Assembly: GCA_023898805.1 (NCBI GenBank)
Contig: CP060260.1
Span: 1,425,656-1,489,655, forward strand
Source: Rhodospirillales bacterium
Lineage (GTDB): Bacteria > Pseudomonadota > Alphaproteobacteria > Micavibrionales > UBA1664
Direction of reading: 5' to 3'
DNA length: 64,000 nt
The position numbers and the translations under genes are program-made. This document shows positions 50,769-64,000 of the stretch, piece after piece (positions within the stretch are counted from its first letter, which is position 1; each line of letters starts with the position of its first letter). Under the pieces are notes generated by a model that had not been told where the DNA came from, did not search any database, and saw only the letters and a list, made by a program, of their open reading frames with translations.

Positions 50769-53720
50769 ATGACCCCTTCAGCCAACACCAGATCCCTGCT
50801 TACCGGCGTTAACGCCGAATACATCGCCCATCTTTACGCGCAATATCTTCGCGATCCGGCCTCGGTGCAGGCGGGCTGGGCATCGTTCTTCCGCGATCTT
50901 TCGGATGACGAGGTCACGCTGCTGCGCGAACTGCACGGGCCAAGCTGGGCGATGCCCGAAAATCGAAGCGAAAACCGCGGCTTCACATCGACCACGCAGG
51001 GCAACGTCACTTATATTCAGTCCGCGCCTGCGCAACAGCCTGCCCGTTTCGACCCCATGCCAGCCGCCGCACCCGTGGTCGGTTTGGACCCGGCTTCAGG
51101 GCAAATGATCGCCGCCGCCCGCGACACGTTGCGCGCGATGATGCTGATCCGCGCCTACCGCATTCGTGGCCACTTCAAGGCCGATCTCGACCCGCTGGGC
51201 CTGCGCGAGGTGCCCTCGCATCCGGAACTGGAGCCCGCCTACTGGGGGTTTACCCCGGCCGACATGGAGCGCGTGATTTTTGTCGACGGAAATCTAGGGT
51301 TCCAGCAGGCGACCTTGCGTGAGATTCTTGCCAGATTGCACGAAATTTACTGCGGCACCGTCGGCGTTGAATACATGTATGTGGCCGATCCAGAGCAGCG
51401 TTTCTGGATTCAGGATCGCCTTGAAAAACCGGAAAACAAAATCGAGTTCGACGGCAGCGCGAAAAAGAAAATTCTGGGCGATCTGACCCTGGCCGAAGGG
51501 CTTGAAAAATTCCTGCAGACCAAATTCGTCGGCACCAAGCGTTTTGGGCTTGAAGGCGGCGAAAGCATGATCGCGGCGGTCGAAGAAATTCTAGACCGTG
51601 GCTCCACGCTTGGGTTGAGCGAGGTTGTGTTCGGCATGGCGCATCGCGGCCGCCTCAATATGCTGACCAACGTCCTGGGCAAGCCATTCGTGGCGCTTCT
51701 TTCAGAATTTCAGGGCACTCCGCCCACGCCCGGCGATTTTCAGGGTTCGGGCGACGTAAAATACCATCTGGGTGCGTCCAGCGACCGGCGCTTTTCGGGC
51801 GGCACGGTGCACGTGACGCTGACCCCCAATCCCTCGCACCTCGAAGCGGTCAATCCGGTTGTGGCGGGCCGTGTGCGCGCCAAGCAGGAAATGCACAACG
51901 ACGCCGAACGTCACCGCGTGATGCCCCTGCTCATCCATGGCGATGCCGCTTTTGCCGGGCAAGGCATCGTGGCCGAAACGCTGATGATGTCGGAACTGCA
52001 CGGATACAAGGTCGGCGGCACGGTGCATGTGGTGATCAATAACCAGATCGGCTTTACCACCATGCCGTCCTATTCACGCTCCGGCCCTTACTGCACTGAT
52101 GTCGCGAAAATGCTTGCCGCGCCGATTTTTCACGTCAACGGCGACGATCCGGAGGCCGTGGTGCGTATGGCGCGCACGGCCATCGAATTCCGTCAACAGT
52201 TCAAGAAGGACGTGGTGCTGGACATTACCTGCTATCGCCGCCACGGCCATAATGAAAGCGACGAACCTGCCTTCACCCAGCCGCATATGTACAAGGTCAT
52301 CGCCGAGCTTGATACCACGCGCACCAAATACGCGAAAAGACTTGCTGCCGAAAACGCGGTGACCGAGGCGGAATCGCAGGCCATGGTGGACGAATTCCGC
52401 GCCCGCCTGGAAAAGGATTTCGAATCCGCGAAAACCTACATGCCGAACCGCGCTGATACGCTTGAGGGCATCTGGACCGGCATCGAGCAGTCGCTGGATA
52501 CGGCCGGAAGTGCGCGCCGGGCCAAGACCGCGATTTCCGCAGATGTGATGGAAATCCTGAAAAACGGGTTGACCACCGTGCCTTCGGATTTCGACATCCA
52601 TCCGAAAATCGCCCGCCAGTTGGAAGCCAAGCGCAAAATGTTTGAAACCGGCGAAGGTTTCGACTGGGGTACGGCCGAGGCCTGCGCCTTTGGCTCGCTG
52701 CTGATTGAAGGGCACAGGGTCCGCATTTCCGGGCAGGATGTGGGGCGCGGTACGTTTTCGCACCGCCACTGCATTCTTTACGATCAGACGAGCGAGAAGA
52801 AATATCACCCGCTGCGCAACCTGTCTGCGGATCAGGGAAATTTCGAGGCGTTCGACAGTCCGCTTTCCGAAAACGCGGTGCTTGGTTTCGATTACGGTTA
52901 TTCCCTTGCGGCGCCCGGCGCACTGGTGTGCTGGGAAGGGCAGTTTGGCGATTTCGTCAACGGTGCACAGGTAATGATCGACCAGTTCATCTCCTCAGCC
53001 GAAACCAAATGGCTGCGCATGTCCGGTCTTGTCATGCTGCTGCCGCACGGCATGGAAGGGCAGGGGCCGGAGCACTCATCAGCCCGCCCGGAACGCTTCC
53101 TGCAGCAAAGTGCCGAGGACAACTGGTCTGTGGTCAACATCACGACGCCGGCAAATTATTTTCATGCGCTGCGCCGCCAGTTGAATCGCAATTTCAGGAA
53201 GCCGCTGATCGTCATGTCGCCAAAATCGCTGCTGCGCCACAAGCGTGCGGTCAGCCGCATTGGCGATTTCCTTGGTGAAAGCATGTTCCACCGCGTCCTG
53301 TGGGACGAGGCCGAGGCGCAGGATCAGATCAACAAACCCCGGGACATTCGCCGCATCGTTCTGTGCAGCGGAAAGCTGTATTACGACCTGTACGAAGCGC
53401 GTGAGGCCAAGGGCATCAAGGATGTCGTGATTTTGCGTGTGGAACAACTTTACCCGTGGCCTGCTGATGCGCTGGCCGAGGAATTGAAGCGTTATCCCAA
53501 CGCGGATGTCGTCTGGTGCCAGGAAGAGCCGGGCAATCAGGGCTACTGGTCCTTCGTCGATCGCCGCATTGAAAACGTGCTTACCACTATCAAGCACAAG
53601 GCTGGTCGACCGAAATACGTCGGCAGGCCGGATGCCGCGGCCCCGGCCACCGGTTCGGCCAAGCGCCACGCGAGCGAGCAGGCTGCTTTGATCGATGCGG
53701 CGCTCTCCACCGGCGCGTGA
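50769..53720 (+). CDS. sucA: 2-oxoglutarate dehydrogenase E1 component
   Basis: 983 aa. N-terminus LLTGVNAEYIAHLYAQYLRDPASVQAGWASFF, a ThDP-binding region (HGDAAFAGQGIV) and transketolase-like domains. Confidence 0.97.
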   Translation: MTPSANTRSLLTGVNAEYIAHLYAQYLRDPASVQAGWASFFRDLSDDEVTLLRELHGPSWAMPENRSENRGFTSTTQGNVTYIQSAPAQQPARFDPMPAAAPVVGLDPASGQMIAAARDTLRAMMLIRAYRIRGHFKADLDPLGLREVPSHPELEPAYWGFTPADMERVIFVDGNLGFQQATLREILARLHEIYCGTVGVEYMYVADPEQRFWIQDRLEKPENKIEFDGSAKKKILGDLTLAEGLEKFLQTKFVGTKRFGLEGGESMIAAVEEILDRGSTLGLSEVVFGMAHRGRLNMLTNVLGKPFVALLSEFQGTPPTPGDFQGSGDVKYHLGASSDRRFSGGTVHVTLTPNPSHLEAVNPVVAGRVRAKQEMHNDAERHRVMPLLIHGDAAFAGQGIVAETLMMSELHGYKVGGTVHVVINNQIGFTTMPSYSRSGPYCTDVAKMLAAPIFHVNGDDPEAVVRMARTAIEFRQQFKKDVVLDITCYRRHGHNESDEPAFTQPHMYKVIAELDTTRTKYAKRLAAENAVTEAESQAMVDEFRARLEKDFESAKTYMPNRADTLEGIWTGIEQSLDTAGSARRAKTAISADVMEILKNGLTTVPSDFDIHPKIARQLEAKRKMFETGEGFDWGTAEACAFGSLLIEGHRVRISGQDVGRGTFSHRHCILYDQTSEKKYHPLRNLSADQGNFEAFDSPLSENAVLGFDYGYSLAAPGALVCWEGQFGDFVNGAQVMIDQFISSAETKWLRMSGLVMLLPHGMEGQGPEHSSARPERFLQQSAEDNWSVVNITTPANYFHALRRQLNRNFRKPLIVMSPKSLLRHKRAVSRIGDFLGESMFHRVLWDEAEAQDQINKPRDIRRIVLCSGKLYYDLYEAREAKGIKDVVILRVEQLYPWPADALAEELKRYPNADVVWCQEEPGNQGYWSFVDRRIENVLTTIKHKAGRPKYVGRPDAAAPATGSAKRHASEQAALIDAALSTGA

Positions 53721-57738: not shown

Positions 57739-58044
57739 ATGGTGATGCAACGCCCTTGGCCGCAGGCACACAAGGACAGACTGGCCGAACTGGCGGACGG
57801 CACGCGCGGGAGCGTGGAAATCGCGGACGTTCTGAATCGCGCGTTCAAAACCGCGTACACGCCGAAAGCGGTTATTGGCCGGGTGCATCGCGAGAATGAA
57901 GGGCGAAAAAAGCGGGAAAAGAGCTTCTTAAATTGCCAGCCCGGGGTACCAGAACGTCTTCTGATCGCACACTGGAAAAAGACCGCGCCTCCCTCCCTAA
58001 AGGTAGGGGTGGTCGCCACAATCAGCCCGGGGCTTTCGGCTTAA
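57739..58044 (+). CDS. GcrA-like protein, N-terminal DNA-binding-domain frame (101-aa zero-frame product)
   Basis: W-x8-L..L......S..EIA..L......TPKAVIGRVHR matches the N-terminal motif of the GcrA cell-cycle regulator family. RBS aaggaaaaaa upstream of ATG 57739. Confidence 0.6.
   Translation: MVMQRPWPQAHKDRLAELADGTRGSVEIADVLNRAFKTAYTPKAVIGRVHRENEGRKKREKSFLNCQPGVPERLLIAHWKKTAPPSLKVGVVATISPGLSA
57906..57912 (+). other. In-phase A_AAA_AAG heptamer (a potential -1 ribosomal slippery site, or the site of a 1-nt indel)
   Basis: Zero-frame codons are CGA AAA AAG (R56 K57 K58). The -1 frame is open from 57900 to 58415. Confidence 0.6.
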
Positions 58045-58507: not shown

Positions 58508-59728
58508 ATGACCAGCATCATCGTCCCGTCTTTGGGTGAATCCGTTTCCGAAGCCACGATCGCCAAATGGCTGAAGAAGGAAGGTGATCCCGTCAAGCAG
58601 GACGAGCCGCTGGTCGAACTTGAAACCGACAAGGTGACGGTGGAGGTCAACAGTCCCGCTTCCGGCACGCTGGCCGTGATCGGTGCCAAGGCGGGCGAAA
58701 GCGTGAAACCGGGCGCAGTGATCGGCGATGTTGCCGCCGGTGCCGCTGCGCCAAAGGCGCAAGAAAGCAAACCTGCGCCTGAATCCCCGCAACAATCAAC
58801 CGAACGCCCCGAAGCGACACCCAAGGAACCGACACCTGGTCCTGCCGCGCGTAAAATGATGGCCGATAACAACGTGGCCGCGTCTGAAGTCGCGGGCACG
58901 GGCAGGGACGGACGTGTCACCAAGGGCGACGTGATCGCGCATCTTGAACAACCGGCTGCAAAACCGACACCGTCTGCACCGCCCGCTACGACAGCAGCAA
59001 AGTCAAATCCGCCCCGCGACCTTGGCGCGCGCGAGGAACGCGTGAAAATGACAAGGCTAAGGCAGACCATCGCCCGCCGCCTGAAGGAAGCGCAGAACAC
59101 CGCCGCGATGCTCACCACCTTCAACGAAATCGACATGACCGCGATTTTGGCGATGCGCGAGGCGTACAAGGACAAATTTGAAAAACGCTACGGCGTGAAA
59201 CTCGGCTTCATGGGGCTGTTCGTGCGCGCGGCTATCGCGGGCCTGCGCGAATTTCCGGCGGTGAATGCCGAAATCGACGGCGACGACATTATTTATAAAA
59301 ACCACTATGACATCGGCGTCGCGGTTTCGACGCCGCAGGGTCTGGTCGTGCCGGTGGTGCGTGATGCCGACGCCAAGTCGCTGGCCGATATTGAAAAGGA
59401 TATCGGCGCCTATGCCAAAAAGGCGCGCGACGGGCAACTCGCTCCCGCCGACATGATGGGCGGCACCTTTACCATCACCAATGGCGGCGTGTTCGGAAGC
59501 TTGATGTCCACGCCTATCCTCAACGCGCCGCAGGTCGGTATCCTGGGGATGCACAAAACCATGCAGCGCCCGGTGGTAATGCCCGACGGATCGATCGAGG
59601 CGCGCCCGATGATGTATGTCGCGCTGTCTTACGACCACCGCATCATCGACGGGCGCGAGGCGGTCAGTTTCCTCGTCCGCGTCAAGGAATGCCTCGAGGA
59701 CCCGCAGCGTCTGGTGCTTGAAATCTGA
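58508..59728 (+). CDS. sucB: Dihydrolipoyllysine-residue succinyltransferase (2-oxoglutarate dehydrogenase E2)
   Basis: Lipoyl domain ([12 protein letters not shown]), an Ala/Pro linker, the E3-binding segment and the catalytic DHRIIDG. Confidence 0.97.
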
Positions 59729-59733
59729 TACCG

Positions 59734-60867
59734 GACTCTAAACAAAACGATATGTCGATCGCTGCGTTAGTTCTGCATTCAGACCGGGTAACTGCGCGCG
59801 TTTGACGCGCTTCATGCGCGAATCGAAAGCGCCGTATGTATAATTGCGCAGCAGAAATGAATGGCGCAGCTCCAGATACGTGTTGATGCTCCTGCGCTGG
59901 TATGCCGATACCGGGCATGCGGTATCGACGATGTCCAGCACCCGGTCCACGATGTCGTCCGGCATGGCATCCAGCCGCCGCAACCCGTCCTCGAAAGCGC
60001 TGCGTAAAACGGGAATGCCCTCGCCAATTTCTACCGTCATCGAAGCATCTGCAACCTTTGCGTTGTAACGCATCCGGGCCATGTGCAGCATGCTTTCGGA
60101 TATTCCCTCGGGCGGATGGTTGGGGTCGATGCTGGCGGCCCTGAACGCGTCGGCAAGGCTTGTACTATCAAAATCGAATTCACAAAAACGGGTTTTTGCC
60201 GCCGCATTGAGGCATAAATTGCGCGGATCGCGGTCGGTATCCTGTCCCAACCATAACAAAAAGGGCAAGGCGGATGATGTGTGGCGCAGATAGGCGTAAG
60301 AATCCGCATAATCAAGATTGCTGGAATAGACGATGCGCTCGAACGGGACGATGCTGACCATATGAGGCAATTCCCCGGCTTCAGGCACCCGGGCCACAAA
60401 TGTTGGTGCGACAGGAACTCCGGCATATAGCGCGAGGCGCGAAACAAATAACTCCGCCTGCGCAGATGCGGGGCTTCGTAAATTTTCAATGCCCCACGCA
60501 CCCGTTGTGGATTTGTGTAGGTCGAGATCGTGCGTGACCCCATAAACATGCTGCGCGCGATGCCATTCCCCCGGCAGGAATGCGGTTTTCAACGAGTCCA
60601 TTGCCAGCGCATGCGCGGCGCGTGAAAAACTTGTCGAAATCGGGACGCTCATATCCATGCCATGGTGTTAGCATAGAGCGTAAATGTTTGTCATATTTCA
60701 ATTTCAGGCGCGATCCGTGCGGTCACGAAAACTTCCCCGTCGTCCAGCTCGAAGACGAGATGAAGAAATCCTACCTCGATTACGCGATGAGCGTGATCGT
60801 ATCCCGCGCGCTGCCCGATGCGCGGCGACGGGTTGAAGCCGGTCCATCGCCGCATCCTGTACGTGAT
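59734..60867. repeat. Segmental duplication, copy 1 (paralogue gene + shortened upstream region + gyrA 5' fragment)
   Basis: Begins with gactctaaacaaaacgatatgtcgatcgctgc (also at 60912). Ends within gyrA-homologous sequence ...catcctgtacg (also at 62298-62308). Confidence 0.9.
59738..60658 (-). CDS. Hypothetical protein, paralogue 1 of a tandem pair (306 aa)
   Basis: Long ORF in visibly AT-richer DNA. Near-identical N-terminal ~110 aa and a shared internal block ([49 protein letters not shown]) with 60916..61908. Confidence 0.65.
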
Positions 60868-60870
60868 CAA
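60726..60870 (+). pseudogene. gyrA: gyrA 5' fragment (codons ~15-60), frameshifted, with no start codon
   Basis: About 97% identical to 62172..62315. Encodes [33 protein letters not shown], then an extra C at 60826 shifts the frame. Confidence 0.9.
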
Positions 60871-60911
60871 TACAAGATATATGACACCCGTTGATGGTCG
60901 CCCTAAGGTAA

Positions 60912-62312
60912 GACTCTAAACAAAACGATATGTCGATCGCTGCCTTGGTTTTGCGTCCCGACTGGTTGACCGCGCGCTTCCGATCATCTGCGGATTGGAA
61001 CCACCCAATTTATAATGGATCGCCAATTCTGCGTTCAGACCGGGTGACCGTGCGCTTTCGATCATCTGCGGCTCGAAAACTCCAAGTTCATAATGGAGCG
61101 CCAGAAGTGAGCGGCGCTCCTCCAGATACGTGTTGATGCTCCTGCGCTGGTATGCCGATACCGGGCACGCGGTATCGACGATGTCCAGCACCCGGTCGAC
61201 GATATCGTCCGGCATGGCATCCAGCCGCCGCAACCCGTCCTCGAAAGCGCTGCGTAAAACGGGAATGCCATTTAAAATGGTCACATACACCGCAGCCCTT
61301 TTGACGTTTCTAAAGTAATGATTCTGGACTGCATCCAGCGTGCTTTGGGATATCCCCTCGGGTGGGTGGCTAGGGTCTATGCTGGAGGCCAAGAATGCGT
61401 CGGCAAGGCTTGTCTCGCCGAAATTGAATTCACAAAAACGGGTTTTTGCCGCCGCATTGAGGTATAAATTGTGCGGATCGCGTTTATTATACTGTCCCAA
61501 CCATAACAAAAAGGGCAAAGCAAATGATTCGTGGCGCAGATAGGCGCGATTATAGTCATAATCAAGATCACCGGAATAGACGATGCGCTCGAACGGGACG
61601 ATGCTGACCATATGAGGCAATTCCCCGGCTTCAGGCACCCGGGCCACAAATGTTGGTGCGACAGGAACCCCGGCATATAGAGCGAGGCGTGAAACAAATA
61701 ACTCCGCCTGCGCAGATGCGGGGCTTCGTAAATTTTCAATGCCCCACGCACCCGTTGTGGATTTGTGTAGGTCGAGATCGTGCGTGACCCCATAAACATG
61801 CTGCGTGCGATGCCATTCCCCCGGCAGGAATGCGGTTTTCAACGAGTCCATTGCCAGCGCATGCGCGGCGTGTGAAAAGCTTGTCGAAAGCGGGGTATCC
61901 ATATCCATGCCACGGTATTAGCACAAGATATAGGCATTTGCCATATTTAAATTGCGCATGCTGTCCGGCCGGTCGTGAAAACAGGCCCGCACGCTACACG
62001 AAGCAGAAAAACAGAAAACACATTAAAATCAGCATGTTAAAAACGAAAATTCAGTATAAAAATTCTTGGTTTTCCGCAGCGTTTGGGCTAGGTTTGACGC
62101 GATGATTTCAGCCATAAAACGGACCCTGCCATGAGCGCAAAAAACACCCCGGCGCAAACCCCGCCTTCGGGCGAAAACTTCCCCGTCGTCCAGCTCGAAG
62201 ACGAGATGAAGAAATCCTATCTCGATTACGCGATGAGCGTGATTGTATCCCGCGCGCTGCCCGATGCGCGGGACGGGTTGAAGCCGGTCCATCGCCGCAT
62301 CCTGTACGCGAT
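60912..62312. repeat. Segmental duplication, copy 2 (paralogue gene + full gyrA upstream region + gyrA 5' end)
   Basis: Collinear with 59734..60867, except for about 196 nt (61983..62178) absent from copy 1 and an extra 78-bp internal repeat unit. Confidence 0.9.
60916..61908 (-). CDS. Hypothetical protein, paralogue 2 of a tandem pair (330 aa)
   Basis: See paralogue 1. The C-terminus contains an imperfect 26-aa internal repeat (HYELGVFEPQMIESARS... / HYKLGGSNPQMIGSARS...), encoded at 60968-61019 and 61046-61097. Confidence 0.65.
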   Translation of the reverse strand: MDMDTPLSTSFSHAAHALAMDSLKTAFLPGEWHRTQHVYGVTHDLDLHKSTTGAWGIENLRSPASAQAELFVSRLALYAGVPVAPTFVARVPEAGELPHMVSIVPFERIVYSGDLDYDYNRAYLRHESFALPFLLWLGQYNKRDPHNLYLNAAAKTRFCEFNFGETSLADAFLASSIDPSHPPEGISQSTLDAVQNHYFRNVKRAAVYVTILNGIPVLRSAFEDGLRRLDAMPDDIVDRVLDIVDTACPVSAYQRRSINTYLEERRSLLALHYELGVFEPQMIESARSPGLNAELAIHYKLGGSNPQMIGSARSTSRDAKPRQRSTYRFV

Positions 62313-64000
62313 GAAGGACGGTGGTTACGATTCCACCAAATCCTACAAAAAATCCGCTCGCATCGTCGGGGACGTGATGGGGAAATACCACCCGCACGGC
62401 GATTCCGCGATTTACGACGCCATGGTGCGCATGGCGCAGGATTTTTCGATGCGCCTGCCGGTCATCGACGGTCAGGGCAACTTCGGCTCGATGGACGGCG
62501 ACCCCGCCGCCGCCATGCGTTACACCGAGGCGCGACTGGCCAAGGCTGGCGAGGCGATCCTCGAAGACTACGACAAGGACACGGTCGATTTCCGTCCCAA
62601 CTATGACGAATCGATTCAGGAACCCTCGGTCCTGCCTTCGCGCATCCCCAATTTGCTGGTCAACGGCGCGGGCGGCATCGCGGTCGGCATGGCCACCAAC
62701 ATTCCGCCGCACAATTTGGTCGAGGTCGTGGACGGCTGCATCGCCTATGTCGATAACAACGACATCACGATCGAGGAATTGATGGCCGTTATTCCGGGGC
62801 CGGATTTCCCGACCGGCGGCCAGATTCTGGGCCGCGCCGGTATCCGTTCTGCCTATACCACCGGCAACGGCAGTGTGCTGATGCGCGCCAAAACGACGAT
62901 CGAGGAAATCCGCAAGGATCGCGAGGCGATCATCGTCCACGAAGTCCCGTATCAGGTGAACAAATCCAAACTGCTTGAACGCATCGGCGAACTGGTGCGC
63001 GACAAGCAGGTGGAAGGGATCGCCGATCTGCGCGATGAATCCGACCGCGACGGCGTGCGTGTGGTGATCGAACTCAAACGCGACGCGCAGGGCGACGTGG
63101 TTTTGAACCAGCTGTTCAAATTCACGCCGCTGCAAACCAGCTTTCCGTGCAACATGCTGGCGCTCAACCACGGGCGGCCCCAGACCTTCAACCTCAAACA
63201 GTTTATCGAGGCCTTCGTCAAATTCCGCGAGGAAGTGATCACCCGCCGCACCATCTTTGAACTGGGCAAGGCGCGCGAACGCGCGCACATCTTGGCGGGT
63301 CTTGCGGTTGCTGTCGCCAATATCGACGACGTGATCGCGTTGATCCGCAACGCGCCCGACCCGCAACAGGCGCGCGAACAGTTGATGGCCCGCGATTGGC
63401 CCGCGCGCGACGTCGCGCCGCTGATCGCGTTGATCGACGATCCCGAATATCCGGTCAGCGAAAACGGCACCTACAAAATGTCGGAAACACAGGCCCGCGC
63501 CATTCTCGACCTGCGCCTGCACCGCCTGACGGGGCTTGAGCGCGACAAGATCGGCGACGAACTCAAGGACGTCACCGATGCGATCCGCGAATATCTGGAA
63601 ATCCTCGCCAGCCGTGAAAAACTGCTCACCCTGCTTAAGAACGAGCTGGTCGCGGTCAAAACCCAGTTCGGCACTCCGCGCCGGACCGAGCTTGTCGAAA
63701 ACTACGACGAGGCCGATATCGAGGACCTGATCGCGCGCGAGGACATGGTGGTGACCGTTTCCAACGCGGGTTACGCCAAACGCGTGCCGCTCAACACCTA
63801 CCGCGCGCAAAAACGCGGCGGCAAGGGGCGTATCGGCGCGACCACGAAAGAGGACGATTTCGTCACCGACCTGTTCGTCGCATCGACCCACACGCCGATT
63901 CTGTTCTTCACCTCGCGTGGGATCGTCCACAAGATGAAGGTCTGGCAGTTGCCGCTGGGCAACGCGCAATCGCGCGGCAAGGCGCTGGTCAACATGATGC
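62131..64000 (+). CDS. gyrA: DNA gyrase subunit A; the 3' end runs off the window, so it is absent from the ORF track
   Basis: Own translation from ATG 62131 gives [61 protein letters not shown]...[23 protein letters not shown]...[10 protein letters not shown] (active-site Tyr region). The track's 646-aa minus-strand ORF is its antisense shadow. Confidence 0.97.

Follow-up and report, generated by a model that had tools for sequence, protein, structure and literature searches.

Gene pair between sucB and gyrA

The analysed window is a 64,000-nucleotide stretch of a Rhodospirillales bacterium genome. This report concerns two paralogous genes on its minus strand, here termed P1 and P2, which lie in tandem between sucB and gyrA. 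An earlier reading of the letters alone (the sequence-only reading) had described them as a mosaic pair without a recognisable domain. Open reading frame (ORF) calls recovered both genes as described there: P1 (59738..60658, minus strand, 306 aa) is the sucB-proximal copy and P2 (60916..61908, minus strand, 330 aa) the gyrA-proximal copy of a putative kinase-like family. P1 is identical from M3 onward to the NCBI protein H6865_01065 of a metagenome-assembled genome (MAG). The window itself lies within assembly GCA_020638235.1, a Rhodospirillales bacterium MAG, on a contig of 920 kb.

The convergent neighbour is sucB (2-oxoglutarate dehydrogenase E2; 58508..59728, plus strand), identified by the Pfam domains 2-oxoacid_dh, Biotin_lipoyl and E3_binding. 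On the other side, gyrA (62131..64000, plus strand; Pfam DNA_topoisoIV, E 1e-161) is the conserved divergent neighbour of the family; its 5' 623 codons are contained in the window and the gene runs past the window end. P2 and gyrA are separated by an AT-rich divergent intergenic region of 222 nt (61909..62130). P2 occupies the ancestral position adjoining the complete divergent promoter region. A sigma-70 consensus scan of 59.6–62.3 kb did not find a promoter, and an Rfam scan of 55–64 kb did not find a structured RNA.

Both genes are AT-richer than their neighbours, as had been noted before. GC content is 55.5% in P1 and 53.7% in P2 versus 60.6% for the window, and GC at third codon positions is 0.62 and 0.59 versus 0.72 in sucB and 0.80 in gyrA. 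Horizontal transfer was considered as the source of the low GC and was not supported. Because the GC of the gene is close to that of the locus in most other genomes, relaxed or AT-biased evolution in this lineage is more likely.

Mosaic identity of the two copies

The mosaic was measured by global nucleotide alignment of both regions and codon-wise statistics. Codons 1–7 were 71% identical at the nucleotide level (about 65–70% together with the 67 nt upstream). Codons 8–112, which make up most of the near-identical first ~330 nt pointed out previously, were 98.1% identical (6 differences in 315 nt), with a synonymous divergence (dS) of 0.05 and 2 residue differences. Identity was 74.8% over codons 113–214 (dS 0.37, nonsynonymous divergence [dN] 0.29, dN/dS ratio [omega] 0.79) and only 50% over codons 191–214 (omega 1.6). 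Codons 215–263, the internal block IPVLRS...NTYLE, were 98% identical with 3 synonymous differences and 100% amino acid identity, as had been read from the translations. Codons 264–298 were about 70% identical with an omega of about 1. Within the two diverged stretches (codons 113–214 and 264–298) nucleotide identity ranged from 50 to 82%. The final 8 codons plus 12 nt of 3' flank were 100% identical. All that the sequence-only reading had observed in the letters was borne out.

Along the gene, dS followed the course 0.05, 0.37, 0.09 and 0.37, that is, 4–10 times lower in the conserved than in the variable blocks, and third-position differences ran in parallel at 4%, 26%, 6% and 26%. When the differences were shuffled 20,000 times, an identical run of at least 100 nt arose in 1 of 20,000 shuffles, which excludes chance as the origin of the mosaic. 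The uneven dS likewise excludes selection at the protein level as its sole cause. The low dS of the conserved blocks is consistent with gene conversion or recent common ancestry beyond purifying selection alone. With identity and dN/dS both non-uniform from segment to segment, the tandem paralogues form a real mosaic, as the sequence-only reading had held. Frameshifting indels were absent from either copy across about 385 diverged coding nt, and the indels present (6 nt and 78 nt) are in frame.

The larger indel is one unit of an imperfect 78-bp tandem repeat of 2 units in P2 (60949..61103, minus strand), which had also been recognised before. Tandem Repeats Finder reported it at 60952–61103 with period 78, 1.9 copies and 79% matches. 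The repeat units encode HYELGVFEPQMIESARSPGLNAELAI and HYKLGGSNPQMIGSARSTSRDAKPRQ, giving P2 a second copy of a 26-aa segment.

A diversity-generating retroelement was considered and rejected: substitutions in the variable block fall across all bases, with A at 18 (P1) or 26 (P2) of 77 sites. No reverse-transcriptase domain was detected among the neighbouring genes scanned (50.7–64 kb).

Structure of the duplicated segment

Between the two genes lies a pseudogene fragment that had escaped the sequence-only reading. This fragment, gyrA' (60726..60870, plus strand, 145 nt), is a copy of gyrA nt 42–185 (62172–62315) that differs by 4 mismatches and a frameshifting 1-bp insertion; the start codon is absent. 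It shows that the duplicated unit extended into gyrA, an essential gene, and left a dead stub.

Global alignment and repeat families D1–D7 delimited two duplicated units. Unit A (59734..60870) comprises P1, 67 nt upstream and gyrA'. Unit B (60912..62315) runs from P2 through the whole divergent intergenic region and takes in the first 185 nt of intact gyrA. They are joined by a filler of 41 nt (60871..60911) which is unique within the window. Relative to unit B, unit A lacks 196 nt (61976–62171, containing the gyrA promoter, 5' untranslated region and start) and one 78-bp unit. The divergence of gyrA' from gyrA is about 2.8%, and that of the conserved coding patches about 2%.

A small family resident at one locus

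Homologues were collected by an exhaustive HMMER search over 1.84 billion cluster representatives. The family comprised 17 clusters, with P1 and P2 themselves accounting for two. The 15 further homologues are about 300 aa long and 23–46% identical to P1/P2; ten clusters were looked up and had 1–2 members each, without an informative name. A word-indexed protein search (5.8 billion clusters) retrieved only P1 and P2 themselves. A single locus was found among the GTDB representatives, and a JGI metagenome scan with an alignment of close relatives did not find the locus. Scans of P1, P2 and the 15 homologues against Pfam, NCBIfam, PADLOC and PHROGs gave nothing significant; a T6SS_Tle1 match (E 0.043, residues 4–38) was taken as noise.

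Relative loci could be read in L001, L004/5, L007, L008, L009–11, L013/14, L015 and L016/17. Each of them carries the family gene in single copy, divergent from gyrA and usually convergent with sucB, within the shared gene order recG ... SpoU methylase – gyrA – X – sucB – ABC transporter – sucA – exoD. Where gene and gyrA are directly adjacent in homologous loci, their spacing is 147–254 nt. Between genomes, GyrA is 87–93% and SucB 69–78% identical, and the family protein only 27–45%. This evolutionary rate is unusually high for a syntenic chromosomal gene.

In tblastn searches of plasmid and phage collections, matches to the family were not found. Together with the conserved synteny this ruled out a mobile-element origin. 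The earlier view of a recently duplicated accessory gene shaped by conversion is therefore upheld in its duplication and its conversion (dS 4–10 times lower in the blocks), but not in its accessory character, as the gene occupies the same gyrA/sucB locus in every readable relative. Judged from sequence and synteny, the family gene is a clade-restricted, vertically inherited and fast-evolving resident of one locus, confined to a narrow group of Rhodospirillales-like Alphaproteobacteria; the tandem duplication is specific to the lineage of the window.

Insertions occasionally flank the family gene in relatives (DUF1194, an 850-aa ORF, catalase plus LysR, GNAT). Gene order conserved within a narrow clade would suffice to account for the adjacency to gyrA, and insertions between the genes are tolerated. 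A DUF1194 gene adjoins the family gene on either side in L001 (10897–11871), L004 (2656–3570), L009 (8860–9726) and L011 (370–1236). It is absent from the locus of the window; a functional association with the family gene is possible, though not consistent. The 850-aa ORF is located between gyrA and the family gene in MAG WB4_1_1452 (L001, 7312–9864), has no Pfam domain and gave only a weak Imm15 match (E 0.0024). The gap between the family gene and sucB is an insertion hotspot in relatives, holding catalase plus LysR in L009/L010 (10913–13344) and, in L016 (8955–9551), a 198-aa ORF with a weak phage L5 gp82-like match.

Predicted fold and catalytic motifs

An AlphaFold (AF2) model of P2 (m182914257a37) was built from the 17-sequence alignment. 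It replaced a model from the P1 and P2 sequences alone, which had reached a predicted local distance difference test score (pLDDT) of 30. The final model has a pLDDT of 86.4 and a predicted template modelling score of 0.85, with pLDDT <50 only at residues 1–6 and 292–319. Its elements follow the order N-terminal strands, helix 63–79, more strands, helix 121–137, a loop, strands 148–151 and 158–160, and a helical C-lobe. The predicted structure shows a bilobal kinase fold: the N-lobe contains a beta-sheet and a helix at the alpha-C position, and the C-lobe is helical. The extra 78-bp repeat unit of P2 extends the low-confidence linker (residues 292–319) that precedes the conserved C-terminal TYRF strand.

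In Foldseek comparisons with the PDB, the top matches were Helicobacter pylori CtkA (3akj/3akk; E 5e-4, probability 1.0, template modelling [TM] score 0.47–0.55), followed by HipA (3dnt/3hzi; probability 0.98–0.99) and, for the remainder, solely by protein kinases. Matches in the viral structure collection BFVD were kinase-like domains, among them one with a PI3/4-kinase annotation and several that are protein kinases. The fold of the model supports an atypical protein-kinase-like assignment of the family. Fold matches and motif placement in the model bear out, at this level, the loose resemblance to HipA/PI3-4-kinase-like folds that had been suspected from the sequence. Whether the pair belongs to a well-known family with a mundane role had been raised as well; the placement reaches a known superfamily, but no known family or role.

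Among the viral fold matches, the best are to domains inside phage proteins of >1000 aa which are annotated as ADP-ribosyltransferase or portal protein. Possibly these are head proteins that carry toxins and contain a related kinase-like module.

The motif WLGQ(D/Y)(T/N)(D/K)RDP(R/H)NL...FCEF(D/N)F, singled out by the sequence-only reading, is present in the pair and corresponds to two conserved family motifs. After helix 121–137, the family has a loop G-x-D-x-D-R-x-x-x-N, in which R143 and N147 are invariant and D142 occurs in 16/17 members. After the second short strand follows (E/D)-(F/Y)-D-F, in which position 162 is D in 15/17, E in 1/17 and N only in P2. The spacing is 5 residues from D142 to N147 and 15 from N147 to D162. 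In the model, the motifs are placed after the long helix 121–137 and flank the two short strands, as in kinases. Mapping of the active site was based on motif position and predicted secondary structure; on this basis we infer that Asp, Asn and Asp correspond to the kinase catalytic base, the metal-binding Asn and the DFG Asp. The triad and a conserved acidic residue at position 69 (E69, located on the helix at the alpha-C position) are retained in 15/15 outgroup members and in P1.

A glycine-rich GxGxxG loop is absent from the family, which has GAWG instead. Candidates for the position of the kinase Lys are R61 (R or K in 16/17) and R74 (invariant), either of which may substitute for the ATP-anchoring Lys. 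At the C-terminus, Y-x-F is conserved family-wide (F invariant, Y or F at -2; P2 residues 325–330, window 60916–60936). It is modelled as a beta-strand beyond the variable linker and is reminiscent of a docking motif. The gyrA-adjacent locus, rapid evolution, the lack of an invariant Lys and the C-terminal Y-x-F are features peculiar to this family.

Asymmetric divergence of P1 and P2

The pattern of identity between the paralogues was compared with conservation in the family. Block 215–263 is 100% identical between the paralogues yet shows little conservation across the family (21% mean pairwise identity). Block 113–165 is diverged between the paralogues yet the best conserved of the family (39% mean pairwise identity among outgroups). 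The segment of codons 191–214 is hypervariable across the family (15%). Identity between the paralogues therefore follows recombination history and not functional constraint.

P1 keeps all family-conserved residues, with DRDPRN in the catalytic loop (60218–60247) and EFDF at 60170–60181. In P2 the catalytic loop reads GQYNKRDPHN (61468–61497) and the metal-binding motif EFNF (61420–61431). Substitutions unique to P2 are S129F, D140Y, T141N, D142K, C149Y and D162N. At the 38 residues that differ in the central block, P1 is outgroup-like at 20 and P2 at 6. Over residues 113–165, P1 is 49–54% and P2 38–43% identical to the five closest outgroups. Variable central sites carry G/C at 47 positions in P1 and 29 in P2, P2 having drifted toward A/T.

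The sequence-only reading had taken the conserved-variable-conserved pattern as a sign of a specificity-determining region. This did not hold up: because the divergence falls on the best-conserved segment of the family, with only P2 departing from it, the variable centre is the catalytic core of an inactive-looking copy and not a specificity region. P1 is presumptively the active enzyme. P2 is most likely a catalytically inactive, pseudokinase-like copy, as predicted from its lost motif residues, and may be either a retained regulator or partner or a gene en route to decay.

Comparison with known kinases

The best structural match, CtkA (JHP0940, H. pylori Ser/Thr kinase, 3AKJ/3AKK), aligns over about 300 columns and is likewise a stand-alone kinase-like domain of about 300 aa. 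CtkA is the closest reported structural analogue of PI4KIIalpha (PMC3974213). The likeness is one of structure only: identity is 11–13%, and homology cannot be detected from sequence. CtkA travels as cargo on the tfs3 integrative conjugative element, and its disordered, positively charged C-terminal tail (KRRR) has been implicated in type IV secretion (PMC5536186). In contrast, the family described here is chromosomal and syntenic at gyrA/sucB, and has a conserved T-Y-R-F-V instead of KRRR at the C-terminus. A CtkA-like effector of an integrative conjugative element or type IV secretion system was rejected, there being no conjugative element, no charged tail and no plasmid or phage matches.

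HipA and other Hip kinases share the catalytic logic of D-x4-N and a downstream Asp. The HipA_C profile (PF07804) weakly matched residues 81–155 of one homologue, P0015 (E 0.019, 15 bits versus a cut-off of 30.5), covering the helix and the strands after it, and none of the other 16 family members. Core Hip kinases lacking N-subdomain-1, such as HipT, are about 290–350 aa long (PMC8262856), which is also the size of the family proteins. An adjacent putative antitoxin gene, usually encoding the DNA-binding HipB or HipS, was a selection criterion for Hip kinases (PMC8262856). Neither an antitoxin gene nor a small co-oriented helix-turn-helix gene stands beside the family gene in any locus, the neighbours being gyrA, sucB, DUF1194, catalase, GNAT and unknowns. 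A toxin-antitoxin module was ruled out on these grounds. The family is also vertically inherited at a fixed locus, as opposed to the patchy distribution of Hip kinases.

The PI3/PI4-kinase loop G-x-G-D-R-H-x-x-N ... D-F-G shares with the family the initial Asp-Arg and a distance of 5 residues between Asp and Asn; the Asp-Phe follows the Asn 15 residues on in the family versus 13 in PI3Kgamma (N951/D964). Pfam PI3_PI4_kinase (PF00454) matched no member at E up to 1–10, and the resemblance is confined to the motif level. The family proteins are 300-aa single domains without PI-kinase accessory domains, and lipid-kinase activity is not implied. On the modelled fold, the family appears to belong to an atypical CtkA/HipA/PI4KII-like branch while falling outside Hip, CtkA and PI3/PI4 membership.

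Known kinase/pseudokinase paralogue pairs resemble P1/P2 in that one copy keeps the catalytic Asp and the other replaces it, with the fold regions kept. P1/P2 differ in being very young, restricted to one MAG lineage and partly homogenised, probably by gene conversion.

Interpretation and alternatives

We assign a probability of roughly 0.6 to the reading in which the tandem paralogues P1 and P2 belong to a small, fast-evolving kinase-like family, the pair was shaped by duplication and patchy gene conversion, and P2 is most likely inactive. The family would catalyse Mg-ATP-dependent phosphotransfer, with Asp142 as the catalytic base, the metal bound by Asn147 and Asp162, and Glu69 on the helix at the alpha-C position completing the site. 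A segment of ~1.4 kb, containing the gene, its promoter region and the first 185 nt of gyrA, was tandemly duplicated in this genome only. Patchy gene conversion between the copies of an older duplication, which is the standard explanation for such a mosaic, would have produced patches of ~98% identity beside diverged ones. P1 has retained the family consensus, and P2 has lost D142 and D162, drifted toward A/T and gained the 26-aa linker repeat, while keeping an intact frame and an N-lobe near-identical to that of P1. The databases contain no close relative.

Several results weigh against this reading. The link to kinases comes from predicted structure, at a TM score of about 0.5 and 11–13% identity. 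Profile searches of PDB sequences, with the full-length protein and with the catalytic core only, gave no kinase matches, hhalign of the family against Escherichia coli HipA returned a probability of 0.1%, and the 17-member alignment contains no invariant Lys. For P2, the probability of encountering no stop codon in neutral simulations was 0.07–0.25, and omega is about 0.8–1.6 in its diverged blocks. Since 7–25% of neutral simulations stay open, the open frame says little for retention, and plain decay of P2 fits these odds and the omega values as well as a retained pseudokinase does. Finally, all high-identity patches, including the non-coding gyrA', show a similar divergence of 2–3%. Such uniformity would suit a recent duplication with diverged patches imported from a related strain.

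That P2 is a decaying duplicate (an incipient pseudogene) without retained function, the mosaic reflecting incidental conversion from P1, is possible, if on the unlikely side. It would account for the loss of two near-invariant acidic residues and several other conserved ones and for the GC-to-AT drift in the centre of P2, as well as for the omega values and the chance of an intact frame just given. On the other hand, neither copy has acquired a frameshift in the diverged coding sequence, where the 6-nt and 78-nt indels are in frame, whereas the adjacent non-coding or dead sequence has lost 196 nt in a deletion and carries a 1-bp indel within 145 nt. The N-lobe, block 215–263 and the C-terminal strand have stayed near-identical to P1, and P2 holds the ancestral position beside the complete divergent promoter region.

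Doubtful, though worth retaining, is a recent duplication (about 2–3% divergence) whose diverged patches were imported by homologous recombination from an allele of a related strain or species. The agreement of the coding patches (about 2%) with gyrA' (about 2.8%) speaks for it, as one recent event is simpler than several conversions, and divergent donor alleles are plausible for a gene evolving this fast (27–45% amino acid identity against 87–93% for GyrA). However, donor-like sequence was not found in 15 billion proteins, the centre of P2 is not closer to any known homologue than it is to P1, and at least three separate imported patches would be required. The changes unique to P2 also affect residues conserved in every other member, which resembles relaxation in situ and not a functional allele.

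We consider it rather unlikely that the kinase-like fold serves a role other than phosphotransfer, for example a nucleotide-dependent modification of another kind (AMPylation, for instance) or scaffolding without enzymatic activity. Enzymes that use an atypical kinase fold for other chemistries are known, and the lack of an invariant Lys, of a canonical GxGxxG loop (only GAWG) and of a significant sequence match to any kinase profile would agree with such a role. Against this stand the Asp/Asn/Asp triad with kinase-like spacing, which together with acidic residue 69 is kept in P1 and every outgroup, and the fact that every fold match is a kinase.

Quite improbable is a pair of active copies in which the centre is a specificity-determining region under diversifying selection. 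The conserved-variable-conserved pattern would be expected, and omega reaches 1.6 in codons 191–214, a segment that is also hypervariable in the family (15%). Yet the centre holds the catalytic loop and the metal-binding motif, the most conserved segment of the family, from which only P2 deviates (D142K, D162N). Over the whole centre omega is below 1 (0.79), and dS is raised in the variable blocks too, so that selection on amino acids is not the sole cause.

A more elaborate scenario is a long shot. The family would be a chromosomally fixed toxin-type kinase of HipA/CtkA kind whose conserved divergent arrangement with gyrA reflects a functional tie to DNA topology, for example through supercoiling-coupled expression or gyrase as substrate. 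The catalytically dead P2 would have come to serve P1 as a pseudokinase partner or an inhibitor. Such a pair, toxin/antidote-like or allosteric, would have arisen de novo through tandem duplication, with gene conversion keeping the copies alike in part.

An assembly artefact, such as two strain haplotypes chained in a MAG, is very unlikely to the point of being negligible: near-identical repeats in a metagenome-assembled genome can mislead assemblers, but the 3.57 kb recur at 100% identity over both copies in a second assembly (GCA_020442405.1, L003) that differs elsewhere, the unique 41-nt junction, the truncated and frameshifted gyrA fragment and the 196-nt deletion bespeak a real rearrangement, and the contig spans 920 kb.

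The fold class and the evolutionary processes invoked here are already known. If the preferred reading, that of a kinase-like family with an active P1 and an inactive P2, is true, an atypical CtkA/HipA/PI4KII-like branch contains an unannotated family that escapes Pfam, NCBIfam, PADLOC and PHROGs, changes several-fold faster than the housekeeping genes beside it and is fixed next to gyrA in a narrow alphaproteobacterial clade. In the pair, one young duplicate would then show three processes together in nature: duplication, patchy homogenisation and the loss of catalytic residues from one copy. Whether this is a route by which bacterial pseudokinases originate is a question that the pair could help to address.

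Other features near the locus

Small ORFs are located between the ABC transporter gene and sucB at 57739–58044 (101 aa) and 57933/58143–58415 (160/90 aa); a Pfam scan of the 160-aa ORF upstream of sucB gave no match. In the window, sucA (50769–53720) and sucB are not adjacent but are separated by dapA, dapB, a GNAT acetyltransferase gene, the ABC transporter gene and the small ORFs. The related loci L001, L009 and L016 also have an ABC transporter gene between the two.

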